The position numbers and the translations under genes were made by a program. 64,000 bases of DNA from positions 9,168 to 73,167 of the forward strand of contig DATFGQ010000034.1 in NCBI GenBank assembly GCA_035249305.1. The letters are read 5' to 3'. The DNA comes from Blastocatellia bacterium. Lineage in GTDB: Bacteria; Acidobacteriota; Blastocatellia; UBA7656. Each line of letters starts with the position of its first letter. Positions within the stretch are counted from its first letter, which is position 1. A model generated the notes under the pieces. That model saw only the letters and a program-made list of their open reading frames with translations, did no database searches and was not told where the DNA came from. Positions 1,333-58,713 of the stretch are shown piece after piece.

Positions 1333-2202
1333 ATGCCAAGGACAGTGAAGTGCGGATTGATCCAGGCGTCGAACGCCTGTTCGATCGACGAGCCTATCGA
1401 GAAGATCAAGCAGGCCAACATAGAGAAGAATATTCGATTCATCGAAGAGGCGGCCCGGCAGGGCGTCCAGATCATCTGCATGCAGGAGGTCTTCACCACG
1501 CCTTACTTCTGCGCGGAGCAGGACAAGCGGTGGTACGAGGCCGTCGAGCCGATACCCGACGGCCCGACCGTGCGCCTGATGCAAGAGGTCGCGCGCCAGC
1601 ACGGGATGGTCATCATCGTGCCCATCTACGAAGAAGAGATCACGGGCGTCTATTACAACACGGCCGCCGTCATCGACGCCGACGGCAAATACCTCGGCAA
1701 GTACCGCAAGAACCACATACCGCACACTGCGCCGGGCTTCTGGGAGAAGTTCTACTTCAAGCCGGGGAACCTCGGCTACCCCGCCTTCGACACGGCCTTC
1801 GCGCGCATAGGCGTCTACATCTGCTACGACCGCCACTTCCCGGAAGGCGCGCGCGCTCTCGGGCTGGCCGGCGCAGAGATAGTCTTCAACCCTTCGGCGA
1901 CGGTGGCGGGGCTGAGCGAATACCTCTGGGAGCTTGAGCAGCCCGCGCACGCCGTAGCCAACGGGTATTTCGTCGGCGCGATAAACCGCGTGGGCCACGA
2001 ACAGCCGTGGGACATAGGCGAGTTTTACGGGAAGAGTTATTTCTGCAACCCGCGCGGCAAGATCATCTCTCAGGCGTCGCGCGACTCGGACGAGCTGGTC
2101 GTGGCCGACCTCGACCTGGAGCAGATACGCGAGGTGCGCAACGTCTGGCAATTCTTCCGCGACCGCAGGCCCGAAACTTACGAACCGCTTGTAAAGGAAT
2201 AG
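1333..2202 (+). CDS. Carbon-nitrogen hydrolase (nitrilase superfamily; beta-ureidopropionase / N-carbamoyl-amine amidase-like)
   Basis: 289 aa. The Glu-Lys-Cys triad contexts are visible (IICMQE, YRKNHIP, VYICYDRHFPE). GGAG lies 8 nt upstream of the ATG. Confidence 0.85.
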   Translation: MPRTVKCGLIQASNACSIDEPIEKIKQANIEKNIRFIEEAARQGVQIICMQEVFTTPYFCAEQDKRWYEAVEPIPDGPTVRLMQEVARQHGMVIIVPIYEEEITGVYYNTAAVIDADGKYLGKYRKNHIPHTAPGFWEKFYFKPGNLGYPAFDTAFARIGVYICYDRHFPEGARALGLAGAEIVFNPSATVAGLSEYLWELEQPAHAVANGYFVGAINRVGHEQPWDIGEFYGKSYFCNPRGKIISQASRDSDELVVADLDLEQIREVRNVWQFFRDRRPETYEPLVKE

Positions 2203-2270
2203 TGCTGAGTGCTGAGTCCTGAGTAATCGTCTTTCACTCAGGACTCAGCACTCAGCACTCAGCACTTTTT
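2201..2270 (+). terminator. Family A heptamer hairpin (copy A1) with T-tract; likely intrinsic terminator
   Basis: Left arm is AGTGCTG AGTGCTG AGTCCTG AGT, the loop is 10 nt, and the right arm is ACT CAGGACT CAGCACT CAGCACT CAGCACT followed by TTTTT. It overlaps the TAG stop at 2200-2202. Confidence 0.7.
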
Positions 2271-2281
2271 GAGGGACGCTT

Positions 2282-3283
2282 ATGCTCGAATTCGCAATCA
2301 CGTTTAAGCCCGACATGCCGCACGAGCGGATCGTATCGCTCGCCCGCCAGGCCGAGGGCGCGGGGTTCACTTACAGTTGGATATTCGATTCGCACGTCTT
2401 GTGGCAGGAGCCCTACCCGCTGATGACGCTCATCGCCGTAAACACCGAGCGCATGCGGCTGGGCACTTGCGTGACTAACCCGGCCGTGCGCGACGCGACG
2501 GTGACGGCGAGCCTGCTTGCGACGTTGAACCGCATATCCGGCGGGCGTATGGACCTAGGCATAGGCCGTGGCGACAGCTCGCGCCGCGTCATGGGCAAGA
2601 AGCCTACTACGCTTGAGCGGTTAGAAGAGACTGTCAGCGTCATTCGCGACCTGAACGCGGGCAAGAAGCTCGAATACGAAGGGCGCGAGATACAGATGCC
2701 GTGGGCTACGGGCGAAGTCCCGCCGGTCTGGGTCGCGGGCTACGGGCCGAAGGCGCTGCGCTGCGCCGGCCGCATAGGCGACGGCGTGATACTACAGTTC
2801 GCCGACCCGCACCTGATCAAGTGGTGTCTGGGGTTCGTGCGCGAGGGGGCCGAAGAGGCGGGCCGCGACTTCTCGAAGATTCGCGTGATGAGCGCCGCGC
2901 CGGTCTGGGTCTCGGACGACCTGGCTAAGGCGCGCGACCATGTGCGCTGGTTCCCCGCGCTAGTCTCCAACCACGTCGTAGACCTTGTGTCTCGTTACAA
3001 GCCTGAAGAGCTGCCTGAAGAGCTGACCAGTTTTATACGCGACCGCAAGGGCTACAACTATCTGCACCACGCCGAGGTGGGAAGCTCGAACGCGGAGTTC
3101 GTGACCGACGACATAGTCGACCGCTTCGCGATAGTCGGGCCGGCGTCAGAGCACGTGCGAAGGCTCAGCGAGCTGGCCGACGTGGGAGTGACGCAATTCA
3201 ACATCTACCTGATGAGCGGGGACGAAGAGGATACTGTCGAGCAATATGGCCGCGACGTGTTGCCGGCGCTCAATCTCGGGTGA
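2282..3283 (+). CDS. Luciferase-like (LLM) flavin/F420-dependent oxidoreductase
   Basis: 333 aa. LLM-type motifs are present (FTYSWIFDSHVLWQEPY, GGRMDLGIGRGDS, VWVAGYGPKAL). The RBS GAGGGA precedes the ATG. Confidence 0.8.
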   Translation: MLEFAITFKPDMPHERIVSLARQAEGAGFTYSWIFDSHVLWQEPYPLMTLIAVNTERMRLGTCVTNPAVRDATVTASLLATLNRISGGRMDLGIGRGDSSRRVMGKKPTTLERLEETVSVIRDLNAGKKLEYEGREIQMPWATGEVPPVWVAGYGPKALRCAGRIGDGVILQFADPHLIKWCLGFVREGAEEAGRDFSKIRVMSAAPVWVSDDLAKARDHVRWFPALVSNHVVDLVSRYKPEELPEELTSFIRDRKGYNYLHHAEVGSSNAEFVTDDIVDRFAIVGPASEHVRRLSELADVGVTQFNIYLMSGDEEDTVEQYGRDVLPALNLG

Positions 3284-3315
3284 ATGTTCTACTAGTGTAT
3301 TAGAAAAGTGAGTAA

Positions 3316-3520
3316 AAGCCCTGAAAGGGCTTCATTCAATAGCCCGGCGCAACGCGCCGGGTGACGCGTCATACGAGACGAAGCCCTGAAAGGGCGCGAT
3401 AAGAGTATCGCCCTTTCAGGGCTTCTCATTATTAACAACTCGGTTCCAGGGGCGTTGCCCCTGGCTATTAAATTTCGCCTCTTCGAGGCTTCTTATAGAA
3501 TCGCCGCCCCTCCGGAGCTT
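3316..3520. repeat. Family B composite tetraloop-hairpin repeat (copy B1, inverted orientation)
   Basis: A string of near-perfect hairpins: AAGCCC-TGAAA-GGGCTT, CCCGGCGC-AAC-GCGCCGGG, a 16-bp stem AAGCCCTGAAAGGGCG/CGCCCTTTCAGGGCTT, CCAGGGGC-GTT-GCCCCTGG and GCCTC-TTCG-GAGGC. It is the reverse complement of the cores at about 15740-15880 and 37335-37470. It sits between convergent genes. Confidence 0.85.
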
Positions 3521-3546
3521 GCCTTTGCAGACTTTTCAGTGACCCT

Positions 3547-4091: not shown

Positions 4092-5060
4092 CTATAGCCT
4101 TCTCGCCGCGGCCAGGAATCGCTCTGCTTCGGCTTTCATGAATGGACCGAAATTCGGGCGGTTCTCTTTCGCGCGCGCAAGCACGCGGCGGCAAGTCTCG
4201 TTCAGCTTCGCGCGGTTCTTGAGCCCCTGGTATATCCTCATCATGTAACGCGCGAAAGTCTGATTGTCGGGATACCTTTCGTAAAGCTTGCGCGCGACGG
4301 GCTCGGCCAGATCGAAAAGATTCTCTTTGAACGTGTATATCTCGACTAAGGCGAGCTGCGCGTCGACGCGCGTGAGCGGCGCGCGCTCGGCGGCCGTCTT
4401 CAAATACTGCAAGCCCTTTTCGCGGTCGCCGATCGGGAGCGATTTCGCCCCGAGCACGGCCGTTGCGAGCCGGCCCAGCGAAGTGTCTGTCAGCAACCCG
4501 ACCTGGTAATAAATATTCCCCGCCGCGAAATAGGCGTCCGCGTAATCCGGGGTGAGCTTCATAAGCTCGTCAAAGTTGTTCTGCGCCGCGCGCGCCGCCC
4601 GCGCCGCCGGTATGGCGTGATTCTGGTACAGGCTCAAGCGCGACCTCAGAGCGTAGGCCGAGCCGAGATAGTAGAACGCCTCTATCTCGTCGGCCTTAGA
4701 TTTCGCCGCGCGCGCGCGAATCAATTCTGCTTTCTTGATCGCCGACGCGAGGAACGCTTCAATCGCGCTGTCGTGATCGCGAACGCCCTGGTCGAGCTTC
4801 GCCGCGTCGACGTAGGACTTCCACACGAGCGCCACCGCGTTGTAAAAATCGCCCGCGGGCGAAGTCGCGTGATCCTGCGAGAGCTTATCGAAACGGCGCG
4901 CGGCTTCCGCGTAGTTGCCCTGGAAGACCAACTCCAACCCTTCGCTGATCTCTTTGGTTTGAGCCTGCGCCGACGGGCCAGACGCGGCGATGAGAAAAAT
5001 GGCGGCGCAAAAAACTGCATATTTGCTTGGCCGTTGCGCGTACTTGATTATGAGCTTCAT
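4092..5060 (-). CDS. Hypothetical secreted all-helical (TPR-like) protein
   Basis: 322 aa. Signal peptide AVFCAAIFLIAASGPSAQAQ. The sequence is helical and Ala/Leu/Tyr-rich (YYLGSAYA, YFAAGNIYYQ). No catalytic motif recognised. Confidence 0.55.
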   Translation of the reverse strand: MKLIIKYAQRPSKYAVFCAAIFLIAASGPSAQAQTKEISEGLELVFQGNYAEAARRFDKLSQDHATSPAGDFYNAVALVWKSYVDAAKLDQGVRDHDSAIEAFLASAIKKAELIRARAAKSKADEIEAFYYLGSAYALRSRLSLYQNHAIPAARAARAAQNNFDELMKLTPDYADAYFAAGNIYYQVGLLTDTSLGRLATAVLGAKSLPIGDREKGLQYLKTAAERAPLTRVDAQLALVEIYTFKENLFDLAEPVARKLYERYPDNQTFARYMMRIYQGLKNRAKLNETCRRVLARAKENRPNFGPFMKAEAERFLAAARRL

Positions 5061-5094
5061 AATAACAACTCACAGCCCGCGAATAAGAGGATTT

Positions 5095-6627
5095 ATGAAA
5101 AGATTCATCACGCCCTTGATATTACTTATCGTTGCCATCCTGGCGCAAACGTCATTCGCCGCCGACAGCGCTAACAAGATCATAGACCGCTACAAGAAGG
5201 CTTCGGGCGGGGGCGCGATCAAGCGCGTCAAAAGCACTTCGATGTCCGGGACGGTGAAGGGGGCCGACGGCGCAGAGGGCCGCTTCGTCTACAGAGTGGC
5301 CGGGCCGGATCGCTTGAGAACCGACATCGACGTGGAAGGCTTCAAGGTGAGCGAGTGTTACAACGGCAAGTCCGCCTGGCGTATGGACGGGCGTGGCCTC
5401 AGGACCCTGCTCGGCGCGGAAGCTAAACGGCTGCGCCTGGAAGCCCTCGTCGCGAACAGCCGCCTGCAAGAGCTCTCGCGCAACCGCATAATCGCCGAGC
5501 CTCCCTCGAAGGCGACGGTCGAAGGGCGCGAGGCGAACGCCATCGAGCTGTCGAAAGACGACGCGCGCGTGAAGATATTCTTCGACGCAAAGACCAACCT
5601 GCCCGTCAAGCAGGAGCGGGAGAGGGCCGAGGGGCTGGAAGAGATTTTTTATGGCGATTACCGCGCCGTCGACGGCGTGATGGAGCCCTTCTCTATCAGG
5701 ATCAAGAACGGCGCGGGAGAACTGACCGTCGCGCTGGATCGCGTCGCGCACAACGCTTCGGTCGACGATACGGCGTTCCGCCACCCGCAGGTGGAAGGCG
5801 CGCGCCCGCTGCCCGACCTCGAAACATTATTCAAAGCCGTGATCGCGAATCAGGAAAAGGTGGAAGAGATGCGCGAGCGGTACAGTTTCCGCGCCTCTGA
5901 GACCGAGCGCAAGCTCGAAAAAGACGGCCGCGTCAAAGAGACAGAGACTAAGGTCTACGACGTGACGCCGGTCGCGGGCTCGTTCGTCGAGCGGCTGATC
6001 AGCGTCAACGGCAAAGAGCTTACGCCGGCCGAGCGCGAGAAGGAGGACCGCCGCGTCGAGAAAGATGTCGAAGAGGCGCTCAAGCGGCGCGAGAAGCGGT
6101 TGAAGAAAGAGGCGCAGGCGCGCGAGCGCGGCAAGAAAGAAGAGGAGGAGGACGACGACATCACCATCCTCGATTTCCTGCGCATCAGCGAAGTGACTTC
6201 CGTGAGGCGCGAGATCTTTCGCGGCCATGAAGTGATCGCTTTCGACTTCGAGCCGCGCAAGGGATTCAAGCCTAAGAACCGCGCCGAGACGATCGTCAGC
6301 AAGCTCGCCGGCACGACATGGGTCGACGAAAACGCCCGCCAGATCGTTCGGCTCGAAGCGCGCCTTACGAACTCTTTCAAGATGGGCGGCGGGCTGCTGG
6401 CGTCTATATCGCCGTCGTCGGCGTTTGCCTTCGAGCAGGAGAAGGTCGGCGACGAATTGTGGCTCCCTTCTTACGGCGAAGCGAACATATCGGCCAGGAT
6501 AATGTTGTTCGCGAAATTCAACCGGAGCATGGAGCGCCGCTACAGCGACTATAAGAAATACCAGATCGACAGCGACTACGAGTTGGCGAAGCCTAAAGAG
6601 AATACGAAGCCCGACAGCCAGCCTTAA
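5095..6627 (+). CDS. Hypothetical secreted protein with a central highly charged K/E/R-rich segment
   Basis: ORF from 4990. The ATG at 5095 is preceded by AAGAGG and gives the signal peptide MKRFITPLILLIVAILAQTSFA. A charged block is present (EKEDRRVEKDVEEALKRREKRLKKEAQARERGKKEEEEDDD). It is divergent from 4092..5060. Confidence 0.6.
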   Translation: MKRFITPLILLIVAILAQTSFAADSANKIIDRYKKASGGGAIKRVKSTSMSGTVKGADGAEGRFVYRVAGPDRLRTDIDVEGFKVSECYNGKSAWRMDGRGLRTLLGAEAKRLRLEALVANSRLQELSRNRIIAEPPSKATVEGREANAIELSKDDARVKIFFDAKTNLPVKQERERAEGLEEIFYGDYRAVDGVMEPFSIRIKNGAGELTVALDRVAHNASVDDTAFRHPQVEGARPLPDLETLFKAVIANQEKVEEMRERYSFRASETERKLEKDGRVKETETKVYDVTPVAGSFVERLISVNGKELTPAEREKEDRRVEKDVEEALKRREKRLKKEAQARERGKKEEEEDDDITILDFLRISEVTSVRREIFRGHEVIAFDFEPRKGFKPKNRAETIVSKLAGTTWVDENARQIVRLEARLTNSFKMGGGLLASISPSSAFAFEQEKVGDELWLPSYGEANISARIMLFAKFNRSMERRYSDYKKYQIDSDYELAKPKENTKPDSQP

Positions 6628-6649
6628 AACAGAGCGGGTGCAAAGTGAA

Positions 6650-6744
6650 TGTAGGGGCAGGGCTTGTCCCTGCCCGGCGGCGCGTAAGCGCCGTACGTCA
6701 TCGAGCTTCGCTCGATCCGGGCAGCCACAAGGGCTGCCCCTACA
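6650..6744. repeat. Family C MITE-like element (copy C1)
   Basis: The imperfect termini TGTAGGGGCAGGGCTTGTCCCTGCCCGG ... CCGGGCAGCCACAAGGGCTGCCCCTACA are about 28 nt each. Each arm is itself an 8-bp hairpin, and there is an internal ATCGAGC-TTC-GCTCGAT hairpin. Confidence 0.75.
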
Positions 6745-6827
6745 GATGATTTGCAATAGGCTCTGAGCCTTTAAAATCCCTTGCTGGACAACCGCGCGAA
6801 CGCGCTGATAAAATCAGCGGCTTTGAA

Positions 6828-10398: not shown

Positions 10399-11100
10399 AT
10401 GACGAAACAAGTTGAGACGACCGAGCACGCGTTCGCACGAGAGCTGTTGGCAGTCATCTCCGAGAAGCCTTATCGCGACCCGCTGCTTGACGCGATCCGC
10501 TCGGGCCGCATGAGCCGCGCGGGCATGAAGCTGTGGGTCGCGCAGGCGATGATGGTCGTGCGCGAGTTCACTCGATTCATAAGCGCGATGCACGCGAACT
10601 GCCCGCACGCGGACGCCCAGTTGCTGCTCGCGGAAAACCTCTGGGAAGAGCACGGCAAAGGCGTTGCCGGGCGCGACCATTACTCGTTGATAAGGCGGCT
10701 GGCCCGGAGCCTCGGCGCGACCGACGAGGAGCTTGATCGGACCCGCCCGCTCGCCGAGACGGCCGATTACATCGCCTATTGCTTCAAGGCCACTCGCGAA
10801 TCTTCATTCATCGAAGGGATGGCGGCGATAGGAATAGGCATAGAGTATTTCTCGCCCAGGTTTTTCGCCGCGCTCGCCAAAGCGCTCACCGCCAGCTACG
10901 GCATAAGCAGCCAGGACGTTGAGTACCTGCTGGTTCACGTCGGAGAGGATGAAGACCATGCGCGGCGGTCGCTGGAAGCAATCACCACTTACGCCGATAC
11001 GGACGAGAAGAGGGAGCGCGCCAAACAGGCGCTGCGCGACATGCTAGAGGTCAAGGGAAGATTCGCCGACGCCGTGTATGCTCACTGCATGAACGCTTGA
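10399..11100 (+). CDS. TenA/PqqC-like haem-oxygenase-fold iron-containing redox enzyme family protein
   Basis: 233 aa, all-helical. The segment LWEEHGKGVAGRDHYSLIRRL ... VHVGEDEDHARR resembles the PqqC/TenA/CADD family. Confidence 0.55.
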   Translation: MTKQVETTEHAFARELLAVISEKPYRDPLLDAIRSGRMSRAGMKLWVAQAMMVVREFTRFISAMHANCPHADAQLLLAENLWEEHGKGVAGRDHYSLIRRLARSLGATDEELDRTRPLAETADYIAYCFKATRESSFIEGMAAIGIGIEYFSPRFFAALAKALTASYGISSQDVEYLLVHVGEDEDHARRSLEAITTYADTDEKRERAKQALRDMLEVKGRFADAVYAHCMNA

Positions 11101-11132
11101 TTTGAAATTTGAAATCTGAAATTTCAAATCTG
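11101..11132. repeat. AT-rich heptamer palindrome between convergent stops (weak bidirectional terminator)
   Basis: TTTGAAA TTTGAAA TCTGAAA TTTCAAA TCTG. A 9-bp stem ATTTGAAAT/ATTTCAAAT is present. It overlaps the stop of the minus-strand gene at 11124-11126. Confidence 0.5.
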
Positions 11133-37013: not shown

Positions 37014-37035
37014 AGAGCCCTTCTTTAGTAAATCG

Positions 37036-37269: not shown

Positions 37270-37309
37270 TCCGCTGGCAGTTATTTAGAGCGTGTCAGAG
37301 AAGTGTGAA

Positions 37310-47745: not shown

Positions 47746-47837
47746 AGTGCTGAGTGCTGAGTCCTGAGTGCTGAGTAAGGAACCAGAACTGTGCGCTTCT
47801 GTTTTTACTCAGGACTCAGCACTCAGCACTCAGGACT
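47746..47837. repeat. Family A heptamer hairpin (A5) in a divergent intergenic region
   Basis: Left arm AGTGCTG AGTGCTG AGTCCTG AGTGCTG AGT. The 30-nt loop holds a nested CAGAA/TTCTG hairpin plus TTTTT. Right arm ACT CAGGACT CAGCACT CAGCACT CAGGACT. Confidence 0.85.
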
Positions 47838-51000: not shown

Positions 51001-52342
51001 AGGCCCTGTGTCGTATGGCGCCGTTCAGCCGAACACGGTCGAGACGCGAAGCTTCAGCTTCTCGAATAACGGGTCGTGCGGCGACACGATCACTCTGACC
51101 TTCCGCTTGCAGGACGGCGATGATGACCTGGGGACATTCACAATCCCGTTCACACTGGGCGAGCTAGTCACTTCGCCGCCTGTCTTAACAGAGAACTTTG
51201 ACGGAGTGACGGCGCCTGCGTTGCCCGGCGGGTGGACGACGGCGCGTGCCGGCGCGGGCGCTAACCCGCCGCTGTGGGTGACCTCGACCACGTCGAACAA
51301 CACGCCGCCCAACTCCGCGTTCTCAAACGGGTCGACGACGCCGGGTGAAAACAGCCTGACCTCGCCGATCATCGCCGTGCCGAACGCTCCGGGGTTCGGG
51401 ACCAATCCGGGTGTGCGGTTGTCGTTCCAGAACAACTTCAACTTCGAAGCAGGCTTCGACGGCGGCGTTCTGGAGATCAGCATCAACGGAGGCGCATTCC
51501 AGGACATACTGGCGGCCGGCGGCAGCTTCATCGAAGGAGGCTACAGCGGCGCCATAGGCGTCACAGACAGCGTGCTGACAGGGCGTCAGGCATGGACGGG
51601 GAGCTCCGGCGGCTTTATCGTGACGACCGTCGTGCTGCCGGCGGCCTCCTACGGCCAGAACGCGCAGTTGAGGTGGCGCACGGCCTTCGACACGGGGACA
51701 AACCCCGCGGGCGGCGGCCTGCGCATAGACACCGTCTCGGTCTTCGCCGCGACGCGAGTCTGTTGCGGAGGCGCGTGCGTGCTCTCTTGCCCTGCGAACA
51801 TCACAGTGGCGAATGACCCGGGCCAGTGCGGCGCGATAGTCAACTTCCCCGCCGCGACGTTTACAGGGAACTGCGGCACGGTGACGGCCAGCCCCGCTTC
51901 GGGATCATTCTTCCCCGTAGGGACGACGACTGTGACCGTGACGGGCCAGCGGCTCGACGGCAGCTCAGACACCTGCACGTTCACCGTGACGGTCAACGAC
52001 ACCGAAGCGCCTGTCGTCAGCGCCGCGACTGTAGACAAGCCGACGCTGTGGCCGCCCAACCACCAGATGGTGCCCGTTACGGTCAACTACACGGCCACGG
52101 ACAACTGTTCGGTGACCTGTACTCTGAGCGTGACGAGCAACGAGCCGGTGAATGGGTTGGGTGACGGCGACCAGGCGCCTGACTGGACAATAATCGACGC
52201 GCATCACTTGCTCTTGCGCGCGGAACGTTCGGGCAAAGGCAGCGGCCGCATCTACACGATCACCGTCACCTGCAAGGACCCTGCCAACAACACGGTCGTA
52301 AGGACAGTGACCGTGCGAGTGCCGAAGAACCAGGGCAACTAG
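48098..52342 (+). CDS. Giant secreted multi-domain protein: BNR/Asp-box (sortilin/Ycf48-like) beta-propellers plus a C-terminal HYR domain
   Basis: The ATG at 48098 is preceded by AAGGGAG. A signal peptide is present. At least six Asp-box-like motifs are present (STNGGANWTKL, STDGGVTWSTP, STNGGTSFARN, STNNGTTWTTL, STNRGDTMTLV, STDGGANWAPF). An HYR-like block is also present (CPANITVANDPGQCGAIVNFPAATFTGNCG...TCTFTVTVNDTEAP). Confidence 0.75.
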   Translation: MKNNQRYAVFFATFTILAFLVLSFSSSASTQVKKSSTAAKKRTGDPRQAVERTVNRMKKRSADPKAKSSILIVEDQEVGEDEDPDLPPWMAGKIDKEAYLRLRGDYIDMLRGRPVNAPGDPREKAIEQMERQELQIRARAKNGLASPLITNWVFLGPAPIPLGQTSTTRVPVSGRTIAIAVHPTDPNTVYVGTAQGGLYKSTNGGANWTKLFEFQFESLAIGAITIDPTDSGIVYVGTGEPNLSADSFAGRGLYIIRNANSASPSLNGPFRLDGVGNDIFTGRAIGRIVVNPLDNNVIFLCTASGTGGNPNTTPTALPPRGIYRSTNAQSATPTFAQVQVTGIPTPNDRSMIDLASDLANPNLMIVSVVGATGDGGIYRTTNALDPTPTFTRTLTLPDGATNGRAELWLNRNGANVTVFAATGEISTVAAGGPNCAATTAGMVRRSTDGGVTWSTPLTGSTGFCGGQCFYDIAIAVTPDNATIHLGGSARGATGNCAPDVMKRSTNGGTSFARNDNTLHADSHALMIAPSDPNVVYAGNDGGIWRSTNNGTTWTTLNNADFSATQFQGVAQHPYDRFFLMGGTQDNGTNCLAADGVTWSHCRDGDGGYAIIDTNAQDTTNVLMYHTFFNQTNSQIGFERAQNTAANADGQLSGWTFRGCSGTVSNNGFRCADNVLFYAPMAQGPGNPNTIYFGTDRLYRSTNRGDTMTLVSQGPLIPSPLPTSLSGIVTTAIGISPEDDNVRIVGMRNGRVFATTTGATTMTDVTGANFPPPNPADAARNSIGAAVIDPNNKFTAYVSFTSFSPPLGQQIFKTTNLNDPVPTWTASSNGIPTVPVSSLAIDPQDSNIVYAGTDIGVYQSTDGGANWAPFGSGLPRVAVFEVEINNVQRVLRAATHGRGIWEIGIPGRLLPVLRNGGAALTAEGCSPANGVIDPGEDVTVAFSVSNIGPGPTLNLVVTLLATGGVTFPTGPVSYGAVQPNTVETRSFSFSNNGSCGDTITLTFRLQDGDDDLGTFTIPFTLGELVTSPPVLTENFDGVTAPALPGGWTTARAGAGANPPLWVTSTTSNNTPPNSAFSNGSTTPGENSLTSPIIAVPNAPGFGTNPGVRLSFQNNFNFEAGFDGGVLEISINGGAFQDILAAGGSFIEGGYSGAIGVTDSVLTGRQAWTGSSGGFIVTTVVLPAASYGQNAQLRWRTAFDTGTNPAGGGLRIDTVSVFAATRVCCGGACVLSCPANITVANDPGQCGAIVNFPAATFTGNCGTVTASPASGSFFPVGTTTVTVTGQRLDGSSDTCTFTVTVNDTEAPVVSAATVDKPTLWPPNHQMVPVTVNYTATDNCSVTCTLSVTSNEPVNGLGDGDQAPDWTIIDAHHLLLRAERSGKGSGRIYTITVTCKDPANNTVVRTVTVRVPKNQGN

Positions 52343-52365
52343 AGCAGACTGCGGTTTGCTTAAAC

Positions 52366-52398
52366 CTGTGGGGGCAACTATTGTGGTTGCCCCCACAG
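52366..52398 (+). terminator. 13-bp perfect hairpin after the giant gene (no T-tract)
   Basis: CTGTGGGGGCAAC - TATTGTG - GTTGCCCCCACAG. Confidence 0.45.
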
Positions 52399-52461
52399 CC
52401 AATCCCTGTCAAGCATACTTATGCGCAGCACCTGTATTCAAGAGGGCTAATTTAGAAATTG

Positions 52462-52470
52462 TGATAGTAT
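52462..52470 (+). promoter_or_regulatory. Extended -10 promoter element TGaTAGTAT; implies a near-leaderless mRNA
   Basis: TG is at 52462-52463 and TAGTAT at 52465-52470. The ATG at 52480 is only 9 nt downstream and has no Shine-Dalgarno. Confidence 0.35.
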
Positions 52471-52479
52471 TCGATTACT

Positions 52480-52782
52480 ATGATCGATGTTAAAGAGGCA
52501 GTGAAGATAGCTATTGGATACCTAAAGCAGTTGTATGAGCCTGCGCAGCTTCATGACATATTGCTTGAAGAGGTAGCATTGTCGGATGATGAGAAGTATT
52601 GGTATGTGACACTAGGGTTCTCTAGGCCGGTAGCTTCAACAAACCCTGTGCAGGCTCTAAAAGAAACTATTCTGAAGAGCCAGAACATAGTAGATCATAC
52701 GAAATATCAAAGAGAATATAAGGTTTTTCAGATTGATGCTGCAACAGGCCAAGTCCGCTCAATGAAGATCAGAGCTGCATGA
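52480..52782 (+). CDS. Small PepSY-like protein (putative partner of the PIN protein)
   Basis: 100 aa with no signal peptide. The pattern AVKIAIGYLKQ...LLEEVALSDDEKYWYVTLGF...REYKVFQIDAATGQVRSMKI resembles a PepSY/cystatin-like alpha+beta fold. GC is about 40% (hand count on one 60-nt line). Confidence 0.5.
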   Translation: MIDVKEAVKIAIGYLKQLYEPAQLHDILLEEVALSDDEKYWYVTLGFSRPVASTNPVQALKETILKSQNIVDHTKYQREYKVFQIDAATGQVRSMKIRAA

Positions 52783-53279
52783 ACGACGAAATCCAACGAT
52801 TGGTTGTTCGCTACGCTCGGAAGGGAATACTGATCGACACAAATATTCTCCTCCTGTATTTCATAGGCAGCTTCGATCAAAGCTTAATCTCCAGCTTCAA
52901 GCGAACAGTTCAATTCACAGTTGAAGACTACAACACCTTGTTGCTCCTATTACAGATGTTCGACAGGCTTGTTACGACACCAAACATTCTCACTGAAGTC
53001 AGTAGTCTTTCAAATCAGTTAGGCCAGCCAGCAAGAACCTCATACTTTTACACCTTTGCTAAACAACTTGCATTGATGGAAGAGCATTATGTTGCTAGTC
53101 GGGAGGTGGCGGCAGAAGACGAGTTTATTAAGATGGGCCTTACAGACGCAAGCATACTTAAGTTAACCAAGGATCATTATCTCGTCTTGACTGATGATTT
53201 TCGACTGTCACAATCTCTTCAGCATAAAGAGATAGATGTAATAAACTTCAACCATATCCGACCGCTGGGCTGGAGTTAG
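52779..53279 (+). CDS. PIN-domain nuclease-like protein
   Basis: 166 aa, with an ATGA overlap onto the upstream ORF. The four acidic positions are in the canonical order: ILIDTNILL (D), TTPNILTEV (E), GLTDASIL (D), LVLTDDFRL (D). Confidence 0.65.
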   Translation: MNDEIQRLVVRYARKGILIDTNILLLYFIGSFDQSLISSFKRTVQFTVEDYNTLLLLLQMFDRLVTTPNILTEVSSLSNQLGQPARTSYFYTFAKQLALMEEHYVASREVAAEDEFIKMGLTDASILKLTKDHYLVLTDDFRLSQSLQHKEIDVINFNHIRPLGWS

Positions 53280-53426
53280 TACGTGGCGATGCCGCACGCC
53301 CAACGAGAGCCTGCACAGGTCCGCGCGAAGTCAGTCTTGTATAAGCCAATAAATCCTGTAGGCCCGGTCGTCCCATTCGTTATCGCCTTGACCCGTCTGA
53401 CCGCGATTGATCATAGTTGAATAGCT

Positions 53427-53807
53427 ATGACTAAACTCGCCGGACTCTTTCTAATCTTCCTGCTCTTTTCCTCTGCTCAGGGCGACGGCAAGAAGTCCTC
53501 TACGGCCCGAATCAATTGTCTTCCCGAAGGCTTTCAGATGACTGACGCAGTCTCTTACGGGGTTAACACAGGCGGGAAAGAAAAACATATTACCGTCGAG
53601 CAGAAGCTCTCGGAGCTGAAGGCGCGGTGCCGTCGAGGGAAGCTCGTTGACGGCAAGGGGCGGGAGATAAAGTTCTTTAGGCCCGCCTGCTTCGGCAATC
53701 CGCCGGCCGACTACCAGGAGATAAGAGACAGAGAGAGCCAGGAGCTTGCCCGGTTGCAGAAGAGCTACAACGTCATAATCTTTGAGTGCGACCCCCGCAT
53801 ACAGTGA
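53427..53807 (+). CDS. Hypothetical secreted 4-Cys protein
   Basis: 126 aa. The signal peptide is MTKLAGLFLIFLLFSSAQG. Four Cys are present. No recognisable domain and no obvious RBS. Confidence 0.45.
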   Translation: MTKLAGLFLIFLLFSSAQGDGKKSSTARINCLPEGFQMTDAVSYGVNTGGKEKHITVEQKLSELKARCRRGKLVDGKGREIKFFRPACFGNPPADYQEIRDRESQELARLQKSYNVIIFECDPRIQ

Positions 53808-53857
53808 AGAGCCTCTCGGCGCGGCGTCGTTGACTCGGCTACCGCGATTTGATAAGA

Positions 53858-53930
53858 AGTCCTGAGTGCTGAGTCCTGAGTCCTGAGTAATTGTCTTTTA
53901 CTCAGCACTCAGCACTCAGGACTCAGCACT
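53858..53930. repeat. Family A heptamer hairpin (A6)
   Basis: Left arm AGTCCTG AGTGCTG AGTCCTG AGTCCTG AGT; right arm ACT CAGCACT CAGCACT CAGGACT CAGCACT. A separate AAGGAG RBS for the 53950 gene follows it. Confidence 0.85.
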
Positions 53931-53949
53931 TAGTAGTAAGGAGACAAAC

Positions 53950-55104
53950 ATGAAGAACTTGAGTGACCGCGTTGCGATCATCGGGATGGGCTGCACGAAA
54001 TTCGGCGAGCACTGGGAGAAGTCTTCCGAAGACTTGATCGTCGAAGCCGCTTACGAAGCTTTTGAAGACGCAGGCATAGAGCCCGCCCAGGTCGAAGCCG
54101 CGTGGGTCGGCACGCTGACTTCGGGCATCTCGGGCCAGGCGCTCTCGCGCCCGCTCAAGCTCCAGTACATTCCCGTCACGCGCGTCGAGAACATGTGCGC
54201 GACGGGCCAGGACGCCTTGCGCAACGCTGCGTTTGCGGTCGCCGCGGGGGCTTACGACGTGGTCCTCGTCGCCGGGTTCGAGAAGCTGAAAGACACGGGA
54301 TATTCCGGCTTGCCCGGCGCGGCATCGACCGTCATAGGCGCGGGCAACACCGCGCCCGGAGCTTTCGCGCTCGCCGCCAACCGCTACTTTCACCGCTACG
54401 GCATAGGCAAGGAAGAGCTGGCCAAGATCTCCGTGAAGAATCACTACAACGGCGCGCGCAACAAGAAGGCTCACTTTCAAAAGGAGATCACGTTAGAGCA
54501 GGCGATGAAAGCCCCTATGATCGCTTCGCCCTTAGGGCTTCTGGACTGCTGCCCGACTACGGACGGCGCGGCGGCCGCCATCATTACGCGCACGGAGCTC
54601 GCGCCGCGCTTCAACAAAGAGTTCGTTACGATAAAAGCGATGGGCCTCGCCGTAGGCCCCGGCACGGGCCGCATGGACCCTGACTTCGATTTCACGAGCT
54701 TTCCGGAGACTAAAGCGGCCGCCAAACAGGTCTACGACCAGCTTGGCATTCGCGACCCGCGCCGCGAAGTGAGCATGGCCGAAGTCCACGACTGCTTCTC
54801 GATAACCGAGCTGATCATCTATGAAGACCTGGGGTTTTCCGAACCCGGCAAGGCCAAGGCCGACATCGACGCGGGCGCGTTCACGCTCGCCGGCGATCTG
54901 CCGGTCAACACCGACGGCGGTTTGAAATCGTTCGGCCACCCGATCGGCGCGAGCGGGCTTCGGATGCTTTACGAGATCTACAACCAGTTGCTCGGGCGAG
55001 CGGGCGAGCGGCAGATCAAAGAGATGAAGCTGGGGCTGGCGCACAACCTTGGCGGCAACCCCGGCTCGTTCACCTGCTCGATAATTGCGCTCGGCAACGT
55101 GTAA
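53950..55104 (+). CDS. Thiolase-domain protein (SCP-x/archaeal-type acetyl-CoA C-acyltransferase)
   Basis: 384 aa. The nucleophile context is VENMCATGQDAL. The C-terminal region has NTDGGLKSFGHPIGASG. Confidence 0.85.
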   Translation: MKNLSDRVAIIGMGCTKFGEHWEKSSEDLIVEAAYEAFEDAGIEPAQVEAAWVGTLTSGISGQALSRPLKLQYIPVTRVENMCATGQDALRNAAFAVAAGAYDVVLVAGFEKLKDTGYSGLPGAASTVIGAGNTAPGAFALAANRYFHRYGIGKEELAKISVKNHYNGARNKKAHFQKEITLEQAMKAPMIASPLGLLDCCPTTDGAAAAIITRTELAPRFNKEFVTIKAMGLAVGPGTGRMDPDFDFTSFPETKAAAKQVYDQLGIRDPRREVSMAEVHDCFSITELIIYEDLGFSEPGKAKADIDAGAFTLAGDLPVNTDGGLKSFGHPIGASGLRMLYEIYNQLLGRAGERQIKEMKLGLAHNLGGNPGSFTCSIIALGNV

Positions 55105-55120
55105 TCAACGGAGGAGAGAG

Positions 55121-55525
55121 ATGGGAGAACAGGAGAACTTGAGTTTGATAAAGGAAGTCTACGCGGCTTTCGGGCGGGGCGATCTGCCCGCGATCTTAGG
55201 CGTGCTTACGGACGATGTCGAATGGATTCACCCGAGAGGCGATCAGATTCCATGGGGAGGCCAGCGGCGCGGCAGCGAAGAGGTGACAGGGTTTTTTGTC
55301 GCGCTCGGCCAGACCATAGATGTCGAGCGGTTCGAGCCCCAGCGTTTTCATGCGGACGGCGACGCGGTCATAGTCTTCGGGCGCGAGCGCATGCGCGTCA
55401 AAGCCACGGGGCGCAGCTATGAGGCCGCCTGGGCGCACGAGTTCATAATACGCGACGGCAAGATCGCAAGGTTCATTGAGTACACGGACACGGCTTCGAT
55501 AATCGACGGACTCGGCGAGGCGTAA
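55121..55525 (+). CDS. SnoaL/NTF2-like (ketosteroid-isomerase-fold) protein
   Basis: The ATG at 55121 is preceded by GGAGGAGAGAG. The sequence NLSLIKEVYAAFGRGDLPAILGVLTDDVEWIHP is typical of the SnoaL-like fold. Confidence 0.7.
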   Translation: MGEQENLSLIKEVYAAFGRGDLPAILGVLTDDVEWIHPRGDQIPWGGQRRGSEEVTGFFVALGQTIDVERFEPQRFHADGDAVIVFGRERMRVKATGRSYEAAWAHEFIIRDGKIARFIEYTDTASIIDGLGEA

Positions 55526-55533
55526 CTAAAGCG

Positions 55534-56700
55534 ATGGCTTATAAGCTAAGCGAAGAAGAAGAGCTCGTGCTTGCCACGGTGAAGCGGTTTCTCGATCGCG
55601 AGGTCGCGCCCGTGGCGAGCGAGCTGGAGCACCGCAACGAGTACCCCACAGAGATCGTCGAGCGGATGAAAGAGATAGGGCTGTTCGGCGCAAACGTGCC
55701 GGAAGCCTACGGCGGGCAGGATTTGAGCTATACGGTCTTCGCGATGATCTTCGAAGAGATCTCGCGCGTGTGGATGGGGCTTGCGGGGATACTCGGCACG
55801 CACACGGTTCTATGCGACGTGCTCGCGCGATTCGGGACCGAAGAGCAGAAGCAGAAGTTCTTGCCGATGCTCGCGCGCGGCGATAAGCGCGGGGCCATAT
55901 GTTTGACGGAAGCGCACGCGGGCACGGACCTTCAAGCCATCCACACGACGGCCGTCAGGCATGGCGATCATTACAAGATCAACGGCGCGAAGATGTGGAT
56001 AACGAATGCGCGCCGCGCCGAAGCTTTATTGATACTGGCGAAGACGGACAAGGCGGCAAGCCCCGCTTACCGTGGGATGAGCGCCTTCATCGCCGAGAAG
56101 GGCGAGCCGGGCCTTACGGTGAGCCGCGACATAGACAAGCTCGGCTACAAGAGCCTGGAAACCTGTGAGCTGTTGTTTGAAGATTTCCGCGTGCCGGCCG
56201 AGAACCTGATCGGCGGGCGCGAAGGCGAGGGCTTCAAGCAGGTGATGACGGGCCTGGAAGCCGAGCGGCTGAACGTGGCGGCGCGCGGGCTCGGGGTCGC
56301 GCGCGCGGCGTTCGAAGAGGCGATCAAGTATTCGCAGCAGCGCAAAACGTTCGGCAAGCCCATCTGTGAGCATCAAGCCATACAACTGAAGCTGGCCGAG
56401 ATGGCGACGAAGATCGAAGCTTCGCGGCTGTTGATTTATACGGCCGCGGAGAAGAAAGACCTGGGCGAGCGTTGCGACATGGAGGCGGGGATGGCGAAGC
56501 TGTTCGCGACCGAGACTGCTCAGGAGTGCTCGCTCGAAGCGATGAGGATATTGGGAGGCAACGGCTACGCCAAAGACTTCCCCGTAGAGCGGTATTACCG
56601 CGACGCGCCGCTTTTGATAATCGGCGGCGGCACAAACGAGCTTCAGCGGTTAGTTATCGCCCGCGCGCTGTTAAAGAAGTATTCGATCAACCCCTCCTGA
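55534..56700 (+). CDS. Acyl-CoA dehydrogenase
   Basis: 388 aa. The motifs are CLTEAHAGTDL, ING.KMWITN and the C-terminal catalytic-base context IIGGGTNELQ. Confidence 0.9.
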   Translation: MAYKLSEEEELVLATVKRFLDREVAPVASELEHRNEYPTEIVERMKEIGLFGANVPEAYGGQDLSYTVFAMIFEEISRVWMGLAGILGTHTVLCDVLARFGTEEQKQKFLPMLARGDKRGAICLTEAHAGTDLQAIHTTAVRHGDHYKINGAKMWITNARRAEALLILAKTDKAASPAYRGMSAFIAEKGEPGLTVSRDIDKLGYKSLETCELLFEDFRVPAENLIGGREGEGFKQVMTGLEAERLNVAARGLGVARAAFEEAIKYSQQRKTFGKPICEHQAIQLKLAEMATKIEASRLLIYTAAEKKDLGERCDMEAGMAKLFATETAQECSLEAMRILGGNGYAKDFPVERYYRDAPLLIIGGGTNELQRLVIARALLKKYSINPS

Positions 56701-56884
56701 ACCGGGTATCCTTTTTCATAAATCACTCGTCTGACCGCCCACAAAGCCGCAAGATTGCGTAGTGTTAATTCCTAACATACAATTACGCCCGCTATGGATG
56801 CGTTTTGGGAGTGGTGGAATGGCCTCTCACAGGCTTTGCCCAAAAACTGCCCATAAAGTAGGGAAGTTGCCCAGAAAGTCTGTC

Positions 56885-57136
56885 TTATCTGTCAACGCCA
56901 TATTCGGCAAACAGAGTCGAGATAGAAATCTCTAGTGCGATAGCCAGTTTTTCTACATTCTCAATCGAGACGTTTCTTATACCGCGCTCAATATCCGCAA
57001 CATAGGTCCGATGCAGACCTGACCTCTCCGCAAGCCCTTCCTGAGAGATACCAAGCTCGTGCCGCCGCTTCCTGACGGCGAGCCCTAAACGTTCTTTTAT
57101 CTTTGGTATCCCCTTGCGTTTGATGCGCTCATTCAA
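56885..57136 (-). CDS. XRE-family helix-turn-helix regulator
   Basis: 83 aa with a TTG start. The HTH region is LAVRKRRHELGISQEGLAERSGLHRTYVADIERGIRNVSIENVEKLA (Cro/C1 type). It lies in an AT-richer segment, about 44% GC on a hand-counted line. Confidence 0.75.
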   Translation of the reverse strand: MNERIKRKGIPKIKERLGLAVRKRRHELGISQEGLAERSGLHRTYVADIERGIRNVSIENVEKLAIALEISISTLFAEYGVDR

Positions 57137-57147
57137 ACGGCTTGCAG

Positions 57148-57198
57148 ATTATACGTCTACAGGAAATAAGTGACAATTTAACTGCCATGTAATATAAT
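57148..57198. promoter_or_regulatory. Back-to-back divergent sigma70 promoters with overlapping -35 boxes
   Basis: On the plus strand, GTGACA (57170-57175) and TATAAT (57193-57198) are separated by 17 nt. On the minus strand, TTGTCA (57176-57171) and TATAAT (57153-57148) are also separated by 17 nt. The minus-strand -10 lies 11 nt from the XRE TTG start. Confidence 0.55.
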
Positions 57199-57221
57199 CC
57201 ACATAAAGGTCAGGGATAGAG

Positions 57222-57446
57222 ATGGGGGAAGAGAAACCACCGCGCAAGCGGAGAAATAAGAAGCCAAAGAACAATGTTATAGATTTTCCATTAGCAGGGA
57301 TTAAATCAGTGGGCGGTGTAGATATAACGCCCTTACAGTTACTTGGCCTCTTGCTCAAATGCGTACTAAAGGACAGAATCACGGATGAGGAAGTTGATAC
57401 TATCTGCTCGACGTACTACAAAGCGGTCAATCAGTGGTGGGAATAA
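57222..57446 (+). CDS. Hypothetical 74-aa protein divergent from the XRE regulator
   Basis: Track ORF. The N-terminus is basic (KPPRKRRNKKPKNN). No recognisable domain. Confidence 0.4.
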   Translation: MGEEKPPRKRRNKKPKNNVIDFPLAGIKSVGGVDITPLQLLGLLLKCVLKDRITDEEVDTICSTYYKAVNQWWE

Positions 57447-57507
57447 CAACTTCTTGCTTGATTCAGTCCAGTTATAATTGGGCAGGCTTGCCTAAGAACA
57501 AAGTGAC

Positions 57508-57747
57508 GTGGACGAGGCGCGGCGGCTTTATAGCGAGAGCCTTGAGATCAGTAAGAAACTCGGCGACCAAAGCGCCATGGCCAGCACCTTGCACCAGTTG
57601 GGCAGATTAGCGGAAGATGCTGGGGATAAAACAGAAGCCACCCACCTGTTTCGCGAAGCACTTAGCATCCAGGACAGGCTTGGCTCGCCATATGCAGAGA
57701 TGACGCGACGGTCTTTGAAGAGAGTAGAGGGCGAATCAGGTGACTGA
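57508..57747 (+). pseudogene. Orphan TPR-repeat fragment (probable remnant of a larger TPR/STAND-type gene)
   Basis: A 79-aa ORF with a GTG start and no RBS. The sequence ARRLYSESLEISKKLGDQSAMASTLHQLGRLAEDAGDKTEATHLFREALSIQDRLG amounts to about two TPR units only. Confidence 0.4.
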
Positions 57748-57882
57748 ACTCTGACCGCAATCGGTTTGACACGGGCGAGGGCTCGGCGTAGGATGTGCCT
57801 ACTTCATACTTTATGTCTTAATTCAGTGGAATGATTCTCTAATCAACCCTTTATTACGATTGTAAAATCGGAGGTGAAGATC

Positions 57883-58644
57883 ATGACCCTGAAAGGCTTA
57901 GCCGCTAGGATGGTCGTGGCGCTCGCGTTAGTCTGCTTCTGCGCGTCCACTTATGATTGGATCGAAGCCGCGACGCCTCAAAAAGTTCGCCCGCCCAGAC
58001 CTCGCCTGGTCAGCCCGCAGAACGGTGATACCCTCATCGCCGGCGAGACGGTCTTTATCAGGTGGGAAGTCGATACTACGGGGATCAACGTCCCTTTTTG
58101 TGAACAAGAGATTTTCCTGATACTCGACAACGGCAAATCCTATGAGCTGGTGGCGCGCGAGATCGGCGAAACCGTCCGCGAGATCGGCGAAACCGTCCGC
58201 GAGATCGAATGGACCGTCCCGAACAAACCGACTACACACGCTACGCTCTCGTTCGGCGCGGGCTGCGATCAGCGACCCTTCGCTTTTTACGAGGGCCTCT
58301 TCCCACAAAGCCGCGAGGTCTTTCAGATACTCCCGCCCCGTAATTACGCGCCCGCGGTGACTCTGAAATCGTTGAAAGAGACAAACGCGCAGGCCGGCGA
58401 CCAGATAGAGCTGAGCTGGGAAAGCTCGGTCGACCAGATAGACTTCTTCGAAGTCAAAGTCTCTTACAATCGCGGCAATCACTTCCACACGGTCGGCAAG
58501 ACTTCTGACCGCAGCTTCACCTGGACCGTGCCCGAAGACATCCGAGGGACAGCCACCTTTAAAGTCATAGCGCGAAAAAAGGACGGCACGCACGTCGAAT
58601 CGGGCGCGGGCGATCAGTCTCAGATCAAAGTGCGAGACAAATAA
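57883..58644 (+). CDS. Hypothetical secreted two-domain (Ig/Kre9-like) protein with an in-frame 21-bp tandem repeat
   Basis: The ATG at 57883 follows GGAGG. A signal peptide is present. Two similar modules are seen (LVSPQNGDTLIAGETVFIRWEV..., LKETNAQAGDQIELSWES...). A REIGETV duplication is present. Confidence 0.55.
   Translation: MTLKGLAARMVVALALVCFCASTYDWIEAATPQKVRPPRPRLVSPQNGDTLIAGETVFIRWEVDTTGINVPFCEQEIFLILDNGKSYELVAREIGETVREIGETVREIEWTVPNKPTTHATLSFGAGCDQRPFAFYEGLFPQSREVFQILPPRNYAPAVTLKSLKETNAQAGDQIELSWESSVDQIDFFEVKVSYNRGNHFHTVGKTSDRSFTWTVPEDIRGTATFKVIARKKDGTHVESGAGDQSQIKVRDK
58156..58218 (+). repeat. 21-bp tandem repeat, 2 perfect copies plus 1 diverged copy, in frame
   Basis: CGCGAGATCGGCGAAACCGTC appears twice (58156-58197), followed by CGCGAGATCGAATGGACCGTC. 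It encodes REIGETV REIGETV REIEWTV. Confidence 0.9.
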
Positions 58645-58648
58645 CTAC

Positions 58649-58713
58649 AGTGCTGAGTGCTGAGTCCTGAGTAAACGCTTTCACTCAGGACTCAGCACTC
58701 AGCACTCAGGACT
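58649..58713. repeat. Family A heptamer hairpin (A7)
   Basis: Left arm AGTGCTG AGTGCTG AGTCCTG AGT; right arm ACT CAGGACT CAGCACT CAGCACT CAGGACT. The pairing is perfect over three units. Confidence 0.85.

Follow-up and report, generated by a model that had tools for sequence, protein, structure and literature searches.

What are the hairpins that stand between the genes of a 64-kb stretch of DNA from a Blastocatellia bacterium, and how do they come to be there? In this stretch (64,000 nt of contig DATFGQ010000034.1, called the window from here on), seven hairpins have arms built from two heptamers, AGTGCTG and AGTCCTG (jointly AGTSCTG, where S is G or C). We refer to them as family A, and to the copies as A1 to A7. 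On our best reading, family A is a hairpin-organised variant, in Acidobacteria (Blastocatellia), of the heptamer repeats found in cyanobacteria (the short tandemly repeated repetitive, or STRR, sequences), Xanthomonas and Beggiatoaceae. With moderate confidence, we describe it as a dispersed intergenic palindromic repeat whose arms are heptanucleotide tandem arrays, STRR-like in kind and acting as an intercistronic hairpin in mRNA. The hairpin family is undescribed in Rfam and in the literature searched, yet it belongs to a known kind of heptamer repeat.

Seven heptamer hairpins in the window

We searched the window for two adjacent units, (AGTSCTG)2, with at most one mismatch. We observed 42 matches as against 0.06 expected from shuffled sequences, and 42/42 were inside the seven loci that a preliminary description of this DNA had listed, so that the hairpins are indeed a real and dense family. 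No further copies were found elsewhere in the window or in the 8.3 kb past its right end. The G+C content of the window is 59.6%, and all seven loci are in gaps free of open reading frames (ORFs). Those homologues of NuoH that have a named source are from Blastocatellia or Acidobacteriota, and the host is a Blastocatellia acidobacterium. On exact parsing of the seven copies, the left arms are (AGTSCTG)3-4 followed by AGT, and the right arms are ACT followed by (CAGSACT)4-5. Tandem Repeats Finder (TRF) gave a period of 7 for 14/14 arms (3.4-5.3 copies), and every copy has an inverted partner arm. The seven copies are listed here, with the order of the S bases in brackets after each arm and with the predicted RNA fold.

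A1, 2201-2266, in the spacer between a CN-hydrolase gene and a luciferase-like monooxygenase gene: left arm 2201-2224 (G G C), loop AATCGTCTTTC, right arm 2236-2266 (G C C C); -47.9 kcal/mol, z -7.8.
A2, 27949-28021, in the nuoD-nuoH spacer: left arm 27949-27979 (G G C C), right arm 27991-28021, with a partial inner unit on this side from 27988 ((G) G C C G); -58.2 kcal/mol, z -10.9.
A3, 31070-31142, in the nuoK-nuoL spacer: left arm 31070-31100 (C C G C), right arm 31112-31142 (C G C G); -53.9 kcal/mol, z -9.4.
A4, 35269-35347, in the nuoM-nuoN spacer: left arm 35269-35299 (C G C C), right arm 35313-35347 (G C C C G, five units); -54.2 kcal/mol, z -8.1.
A5, 47746-47837, in a divergent spacer of ~340 nt: left arm 47746-47776 (G G C G), 30-nt loop with a small inner stem, right arm 47807-47837 (G C C G); -58.6 kcal/mol, z -8.3.
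A6, 53858-53930, upstream of a thiolase gene: left arm 53858-53888 (C G C C), loop AATTGTCTTTT, right arm 53900-53930 (C C G C); -46.6 kcal/mol, z -7.5.
A7, 58649-58713, between a 256-aa ORF and an S9 peptidase gene: left arm 58649-58672 (G G C), loop AAACGCTTTC, right arm 58683-58713 (G C C G); -48.3 kcal/mol, z -9.3.

The mosaic make-up of the arms and the orders of the left arms (GGC, GGCC, CCGC, CGCC, GGCG, CGCC and GGC) are as had been described, and the coordinates given for five copies stand. However, A1 ends at 2266 (the earlier end, 2270, had taken in a TTTT tail), and A3 had been placed off by one. We could not agree that the order of the G and C variants differs in every copy, since the left arms of A1 and A7 are the same, as are those of A4 and A6; only the combinations of left and right arms all differ.

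As RNA, the seven hairpins have predicted folding energies between -46.6 and -58.6 kcal/mol (z-scores between -7.5 and -10.9), and 0/200 shuffled sequences were equally stable. A perfect stem of 24-27 bp is present in five copies: in register in A1, A2 and A7, and after a shift by one unit in A3 and A5. The stem of A2 has 27 bp (27949-27975 with 27988-28014), while that of A3 has 24 bp and forms solely in the shifted register (31077-31100 with 31119-31142), which bears out the proposal that such a shift restores pairing. The S.S mismatches in register number 0 to 4 per hairpin, and not 0 to 3 as first thought; the maximum is in A6, where four of four S positions are mismatched.

An assembly artefact could be ruled out, since two independent assemblies agree. 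In an independent ENA assembly of the same strain, the DNA was 99.96% identical over window positions 26028-31356, with A2 and A3 unchanged, and showed zero mismatches over 51601-64000, with A6 and A7 unchanged. The lone difference in the latter 12.4 kb was found in a coding tandem repeat (58156-58207) and amounts to one unit of 21 nt. This repeat is perfect (CGCGAGATCGGCGAAACCGTC, 2.5 copies) and lies in the ORF 57874-58644; the second assembly is one unit shorter.

Gene context, translation and the central base

We examined the anatomy of family A in 146 distinct copies, taken from the window, other genomes and soil metagenomes. In 81 of these, the hairpin stands between the stop codon of one gene and the start codon of the next in co-directional genes (the start codon being at most 60 nt past the hairpin), while 10 copies are between convergent and 3 between divergent genes. 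Since most copies fill spacers between co-directional genes, they are expected to be transcribed within operon mRNAs. A typical element measures 65-90 nt in all, with ~4+4 units and a loop close to 11 nt. Four units were present in 52/81 upstream arms and in 55/81 downstream arms, and the mode of the loop was 11 nt. The downstream arm was the longer one in 28 copies and the shorter one in 7 (p = 5e-4), and the asymmetry in arm length is therefore tied to gene direction.

The distance from the stop codon to the arm was mostly -2 to +6 nt, and the stop codon often uses the first bases of the arm. This can be seen in A1, where the upstream TAG (2200-2202) overlaps the first base pair of the arm. 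The distance from the arm to the start codon had its peak at 4-7 nt in the co-directional copies. The 12-nt flanks of the 81 oriented copies showed no conserved motif and no duplication, and none was seen beside the seven window copies either. This led us to reject a MITE (a miniature transposable element with inverted repeats), from which family A differs in having no target-site duplication.

Within the window, A2, A3 and A4 are inside the 14-gene nuo operon, in the nuoD-H, nuoK-L and nuoM-N spacers, and A5 is between divergent genes, both as first described. A5 is found upstream of a minus-strand GFO/IDH/MocA oxidoreductase gene, at 34 nt from its start codon, and >200 nt before a plus-strand gene of 1428 aa (a large secreted protein). 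A1 is followed by a TTTTT run and by an ATG at 2282 that has its own GAGGG, and A7 lies between the stop of its upstream ORF (58644) and an ATG at 58731 with its own GGGGAG. The ATG after A6 (53950) likewise has its own AAGGAG. The closeness of the left arm to a stop codon, which had been reported as usual, was found again, except that A6 departs from it by beginning 50 nt past the stop of the nearest long ORF.

The terminal unit of the downstream arm showed a link to translation. Its CAGGACT form contains AGGA, which is Shine-Dalgarno-like and at Shine-Dalgarno distance from the start codon. This form was found in 34/45 cases (76%) with a start codon 2-10 nt away, as against 108/226 (48%) otherwise (Fisher p = 9e-4), and the penultimate unit near start codons showed a weaker enrichment of the same form (p = 0.03). 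All three nuo copies end in CAGGACT: 6 nt before the nuoH ATG (28028) in A2, with AGGA 8 nt before the ATG; 7 nt before the nuoL ATG (31150) in A3; and 4 nt before the nuoN ATG (35352) in A4. A1, A6 and A7, which have a GGAG-type site of their own downstream, end in either form. We conclude that the AGGA form is selected next to start codons. As read from the sequence, three left-arm units also place TGA at offsets 5, 12 and 19, that is, in all three frames. In DNA this rich in G+C, open frames are common, which makes ORF ends too loose a guide to whether upstream genes finish within the left arm.

The central base S was G or C in all but 5/276 terminal units. We compared S between the arms, and observed that it was complementary in register at 169/352 positions (48%), as against 49% when right arms were swapped between hairpins. 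None of the five registers tested gave better pairing, and the number of complementary pairs per hairpin fitted a binomial with p = 0.5 across the 146 copies. With S pairing exactly at chance, the mismatches at S are not a designed feature of the stem, and a pairing constraint or compensatory change at S, for which neither the swapped-arm control nor the binomial model gave any signal, could be rejected. The S bases of neighbouring units were not positively correlated (19 pairs the same and 23 different), and we found no rule in the order of S by position other than at the terminal unit.

Orthologous hairpins were compared at loci with flanks 78-93% identical, and also between near-identical strains. 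At 99.5% identity, the hairpins were identical. At about 93%, the arms were identical and the loop was different. At 82-87%, the number of units was often kept and every constant base of the intact units was kept, but between a quarter and a half of the units had exchanged G for C, or C for G, at S. This indicates that constraint acts on the six constant bases of both arms, and that S drifts, though only between G and C. One related locus has AGTGATG/CATCACT throughout its nuoM-N hairpin, a change at a constant position that is matched in both arms.

Turnover, spread and known relatives

We compared the nuo spacers with those of three relatives, L121, L122 and L123, in which NuoH is 92-94% identical to that of the window and the DNA about 77-87% identical. 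The orthologous spacers were as follows.

nuoD-H: a full hairpin in the window; 23 nt and no hairpin in L121; 23 nt and no hairpin in L122; a degenerate hairpin in L123.
nuoI-J: 15 nt in the window; 13 nt in L121; 13 nt in L122; a GGGG-type hairpin in L123.
nuoJ-K: AATCTCA x2.4 (30534-30550) in the window; a GGGATGA x4 hairpin (12504-12590) in L121; a short remnant in L122; a TGCGGAT x4 hairpin (12574-12659) in L123.
nuoK-L: 4+4 units in the window; 1 left and 3-4 right units in L121; 1 left and ~2 right units, interrupted by another palindrome, in L122; L123 outside coverage.
nuoM-N: 4+5 units in the window; the AGTGATG hairpin in L121; 11 nt in L122; L123 outside coverage.

From this alignment of spacers, it appears that the spacers of one operon are repeatedly filled, resized and emptied by heptamer hairpins of differing sequence, the empty ones being 11-23 nt long. 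In the two relatives that have no hairpin at nuoD-H, a single ACTCAGGA is followed by six T and the ATG. Either the array grew from this native ribosome-binding region, or the single unit was left behind by a deletion. The number of units did not vary at 99.5-99.96% identity and did vary at about 80-87%, so turnover is rapid at the level of species and stable at the level of strains. Variation in unit order between strains had been expected; instead, the hairpins were identical at 99.5-99.96% identity, and rapid switching of unit order was therefore discarded.

Family A is not confined to this region, contrary to one possibility raised in the preliminary description, as matches were found in genomes, metagenomes and phage contigs. 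A scan of one genome per species, with three units plus AGT as the query, gave at least 119 stretches. The sources, among the matches listed, were Acidobacteriota (Blastocatellia, Pyrinomonadaceae, Thermoanaerobaculia, Terriglobia), Nostocales, Chloroflexota, Planctomycetota, Gemmatimonadota and others. Of the 119 genome stretches listed, 18 were two-armed hairpins under strict parsing; among these listed matches, 12 were from Acidobacteriota, 4 from Nostocales, and the remainder from Chloroflexota and Gemmatimonadota. The AGTGCTG unit also occurs in arrays and hairpins of Nostoc and Calothrix genomes. A metagenome scan for the mosaic hairpin gave at least 120 stretches, with sample codes that read as mostly soil. 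Many soil copies have loops of the GGGYGGG or CCCRCCC type, which may face either way with respect to the genes, and in the window the loops of A1, A6 and A7 are related; shared loop types of this sort point to copying of whole elements.

Some of the matches have other arrangements. In a metagenome-assembled genome (MAG) of Blastocatellia (L103, 2150-2458), a right arm of 20 CAGSACT units is followed by a 9-unit array, so arms can exceed four units. Homogeneous arrays of 14-15 units of this heptamer with no inverted partner are present in two cultured bacteria that are unrelated, Pantoea coffeiphila (L018, 4653-4750) and Treponema sp. HNW (L081, 5352-5459). In an Acidobacteriota MAG (L032, 733-860 and 2699-2870), the family-A arms enclose a palindromic AGTTCAAGCTTTTAGCTTGCT and its complement, and in Nostoc (L044/L078, ~2165-2293) they are placed around a conserved AAAGACCGCCCACAAGGGG element; both look nested.

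The window also contains a sibling hairpin built on another heptamer:

1268-1313: (TAGYCAG)2 TAG, loop, CTA CTGGCTA CTGACCA; the same architecture, with a variable central base.

This sibling shares bases with the TAG stop upstream of it, and 19 nt separate its end from the ATG at 1333. As it shares the architecture with a different heptamer, family A is one member of a class. In 881 kb of related DNA, we counted 379 tandem arrays of period 7, with periods 6 and 8 at only 55 and 56, and in a set of 737 kb the counts were 381, 41 and 52, respectively (both sets being loci chosen for holding family A). About half of the arrays have an inverted partner. Other heptamer families make up >100 of the period-7 arrays in the DNA fetched, and hairpins of ~4+4 units on the same contigs are formed by GGGATGA, TGCGGAT, AGCTCTC, GGCGTCA, AATGTTG, AGGATYT, AAGGCAG, AGAGGCT and AGGGGCR. 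Family A is thus one successful member of a class that matches the known bacterial heptanucleotide repeats. Separately, an A+T-rich heptamer palindrome (TTTGAAA units, GATTTGAAATTTGAAATCTGAAATTTCAAATC) was seen at 11100-11132, exactly between the ends of two convergent ORFs.

Phage contigs also carry these arrays. Three permuted heptamers of the same composition, used as control scans of phage contigs, gave 1, 6 and 12 stretches, while family A gave 25 and GGGATGA gave 11. Since arrays of almost any heptamer exist, AGTSCTG in several phyla need not mean transfer, and the sharing across phyla is weakened as evidence of horizontal transfer. One tailed-phage contig, IMGVR_UViG_3300005578_000008 (40.8 kb, G+C 0.56-0.62), codes for a tape measure protein and a virion structural protein as well as for a major head protein (phrog_29, 2e-52). 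It holds ~39 family-A arms in 38 kb, or ~20 hairpins, some of them in the stop-hairpin-start arrangement, at a density several-fold that of the window.

The hairpins had been described as belonging to no named repeat family. For the particular hairpin this holds: Rfam gave no match at the gathering threshold, which excludes a known RNA family at that score, and in E-value mode it gave only sub-threshold eukaryotic miRNA precursor models (25-43 bits against cut-offs of 62-100). No link of the hairpins to a tRNA or tmRNA was found. Nor did we find the sequence printed in any paper where the context was relevant, in a search that was incomplete and left older cyanobacterial work uncovered. The kind, on the other hand, is known, namely the tandem heptanucleotide repeats of bacteria. 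Elhai (2008) is reported to have treated small dispersed repeats in heptamer arrays, to which family A may be linked.

For bacterial heptanucleotide repeats (STRR, long simple sequence repeats), the primary sources are Mazel 1990 and Mrazek 2007, which we take from the summaries in PMC4679880 and PMC4692102. According to these summaries, heptanucleotides are the most abundant class of long simple sequence repeats, and polymerase slippage was proposed as their origin (Mrazek 2007). Family A resembles them in its tandem 7-nt unit, its intergenic position, its many dispersed loci and the genomic excess of period 7. It differs in being made of inverted pairs of ~four units that form a hairpin, in its free G/C centre and acidobacterial host, and in being stable, not length-variable, between near-identical strains. 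The GGGAATC repeats of Xanthomonas and GGGGAYT repeats of Nostoc are intergenic heptamers, commonly of four units, with one or two variable positions; the Xanthomonas arrays have a modal length of four units, and some are inverted with the potential to form stem-loops (PMC4692102). However, these repeats are G-rich and have been proposed to form G-quadruplexes, and the inverted arrangement is the exception there and the rule in family A (PMC4692102).

The TAACTGA direct repeats of marine Beggiatoaceae, Cyanobacteria and Bacteroidetes form arrays of 2-6 units that end a few nt before start codons (PMC4679880). As with family A, one heptamer is found in distant phyla, overlaps the ribosome-binding region and occurs in operons that include essential genes. 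In contrast to family A, they are repeated in direct orientation, with a single inverted case in 170 sets, and they have no Shine-Dalgarno-like core and another unit (PMC4679880). The REP (repetitive extragenic palindromic), BIME and REPIN elements are likewise short, high-copy, intergenic imperfect palindromes, often within operons, for which roles in mRNA stabilisation have been proposed (PMC3733652, PMC3116915). Family A differs from them in having no GTAG/CGTC head (its arms begin with AGTG or AGTC) and in arms that have an internal period of 7.

Competing explanations and other repeats in the window

As an intercistronic stem-loop in mRNA, a family-A hairpin could be a barrier to 3' exonucleases, a processing site for a double-strand RNase, or both, and it may stabilise the upstream message or direct its processing. 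It may also couple translation, in that a ribosome that terminates at the neighbouring stop codon would open the lowest base pairs, and these hold or adjoin the AGGA of the next gene. The hairpins could arise and change size when replication slips by 7-nt units and when inverted duplication (template switching) takes place in short spacers, with some copying of whole elements between loci. They would bring their own stop and ribosome-binding signals, and hence might do little harm and persist. The early mRNA of phage T7 has intercistronic RNase III hairpins, and REP-type sequences are stabilisers of mRNA. Family A may be likened to both, with its long mismatched stems between cistrons and its presence at many phage gene junctions, although this is a functional analogy only.

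Several observations weigh against this account. The peak at four units is sharp, unlike the decaying lengths of a free-running slippage repeat. The number of units did not change at 99.5-99.96% identity, yet the 21-nt coding repeat changed over the same stretch. Slippage does not explain the mosaics, since the S bases of neighbouring units are uncorrelated, and copying of one arm from the other by template switching predicts complementary S, as against the chance level observed. The kinship of the loops (A1, A6 and A7; GGGYGGG/CCCRCCC) favours the copying of whole elements. A coupling role cannot be general, since the genes after A1, A6 and A7 have Shine-Dalgarno sites of their own and A5 is not intercistronic; and we infer all of the RNA-level functions from sequence. 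The four-unit peak, the S patterns, the loop subfamilies and the strain stability weaken slippage, and favour copying of whole elements or a constraint that sets the size.

A more far-reaching proposal, which we offer as speculation and consider rather unlikely, is that the hairpin is a self-contained intercistronic cassette independent of orientation, with TGA in three frames, a ~30-bp stem of four heptads and AGGA. A mechanism that measures heptads would copy it as a unit between loci, genomes and phages, and would not read the central G/C; the same mechanism would lie behind the excess of 7-nt repeats in many phyla.

Another possibility, which we likewise consider rather unlikely, is a selfish element of the REP/REPIN type. 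A transposase with its gene elsewhere in the genome, either a RAYT or some other enzyme that recognises hairpins, would copy the whole ~73-nt hairpin in trans to new intergenic sites, and the host would merely tolerate it. This would fit a high-copy palindrome of fixed size (4+4 units, 11-nt loop), with loop subfamilies common to several copies, loops in both orientations relative to genes, presence or absence at orthologous sites, many copies in one phage, and hairpins stable between near-identical strains. However, the GTAG/CGTC head (by the REP definition of PMC3733652), a conserved flank and a target duplication are all absent, and no transposase was found among the ten proteins that flank the window hairpins and were scanned. 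At orthologous sites the arms are resized independently, and unrelated heptamer hairpins occupy the same gaps, which looks like local birth and not insertion. The permuted heptamers, too, form arrays in phages, which argues that arrays arise for many sequences.

It is also conceivable, though we regard it as improbable, that each locus is an independent slippage microsatellite, a neutral by-product in which the hairpin form and the position near genes have no function. The general excess of period-7 arrays of many sequences in these genomes and the chance-level pairing of S agree with this. So does the position, since an insertion into a spacer of 10-25 nt necessarily adjoins both stop and start, and the empty nuo spacers are of just such lengths. 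On the other hand, a neutral origin would not lead one to expect constant bases fully kept in orthologues with flanks about 80% identical, a preferred size of four units, the AGGA-bearing unit enriched beside start codons, or an arm-length asymmetry that follows gene direction, and slippage alone does not produce inverted partners in about half of the arrays.

Those six invariant positions out of seven, with one free position limited to G or C, and the preferred number of four units could alternatively mark an array of binding sites. A protein such as a nucleoid, gyrase-type or RNA-binding factor would read the heptads in DNA or RNA and leave the central base uncontacted, which would account for the 7-nt periodicity, and the hairpin would be secondary. 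A comparable proposal has been made for the TAACTGA repeats (PMC4679880). We find this quite unlikely: no candidate protein was identified, and many unrelated heptamers make the same 4+4 hairpins in the same genomes, so the class as a whole is beyond what a single sequence-specific reader could account for.

That the hairpins are intrinsic transcription terminators (possibly bidirectional) or attenuators is, for most copies, highly improbable, in line with the earlier remark that the family cannot be only a terminator, since the very stable stems, the TTTTT after A1 and the 10/146 copies between convergent genes are outweighed by the lack of a T-run 3' of the stem in 6/7 window copies, by a terminator scan of 27000-37500 that flagged 0/3 nuo copies (A2-A4), and by the start codon a few nt downstream in the 81 co-directional copies, including the three in the nuo operon.

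In bacteria, heptanucleotide repeats were already known in 1990, and no other long simple repeats are as common. Family A offers a well-defined case, with a fixed 4+4 design, a stop/start position in essential operons, a free S, a link to the ribosome-binding site and a phage that uses it heavily. Should the hairpins affect how stable mRNAs are or how translation is coupled, they would form a widespread layer of operon control in Acidobacteria, a soil phylum that ranks with the most abundant and also with those studied least. Should dedicated machinery copy them instead, it would be one so far undescribed.

The window also holds repeats of other kinds. Acido-Lenti-1 motifs (RF01687) are present at the following positions.

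3317-3361, minus strand.
3446-3490, plus strand.
15718-15762, minus strand.
15848-15892, plus strand.
37310-37570: an inverted pair and a tandem array of ~31-nt units (at about these positions).

Three of these motifs are above the gathering threshold and two just below it. They form inverted pairs about 85 nt apart, and behave as a second dispersed repeat family rather than as single sRNA genes. A 39-nt inverted repeat (77% complementary, with a GGGGCAGGGCTTGTCCCTGCCC core) was seen at 6639-6755, after the ORF 4990-6627. Inside the ORF 41093-42925, positions 42035-42160 hold 2.6 copies of a 51-nt tandem repeat (72% matches).

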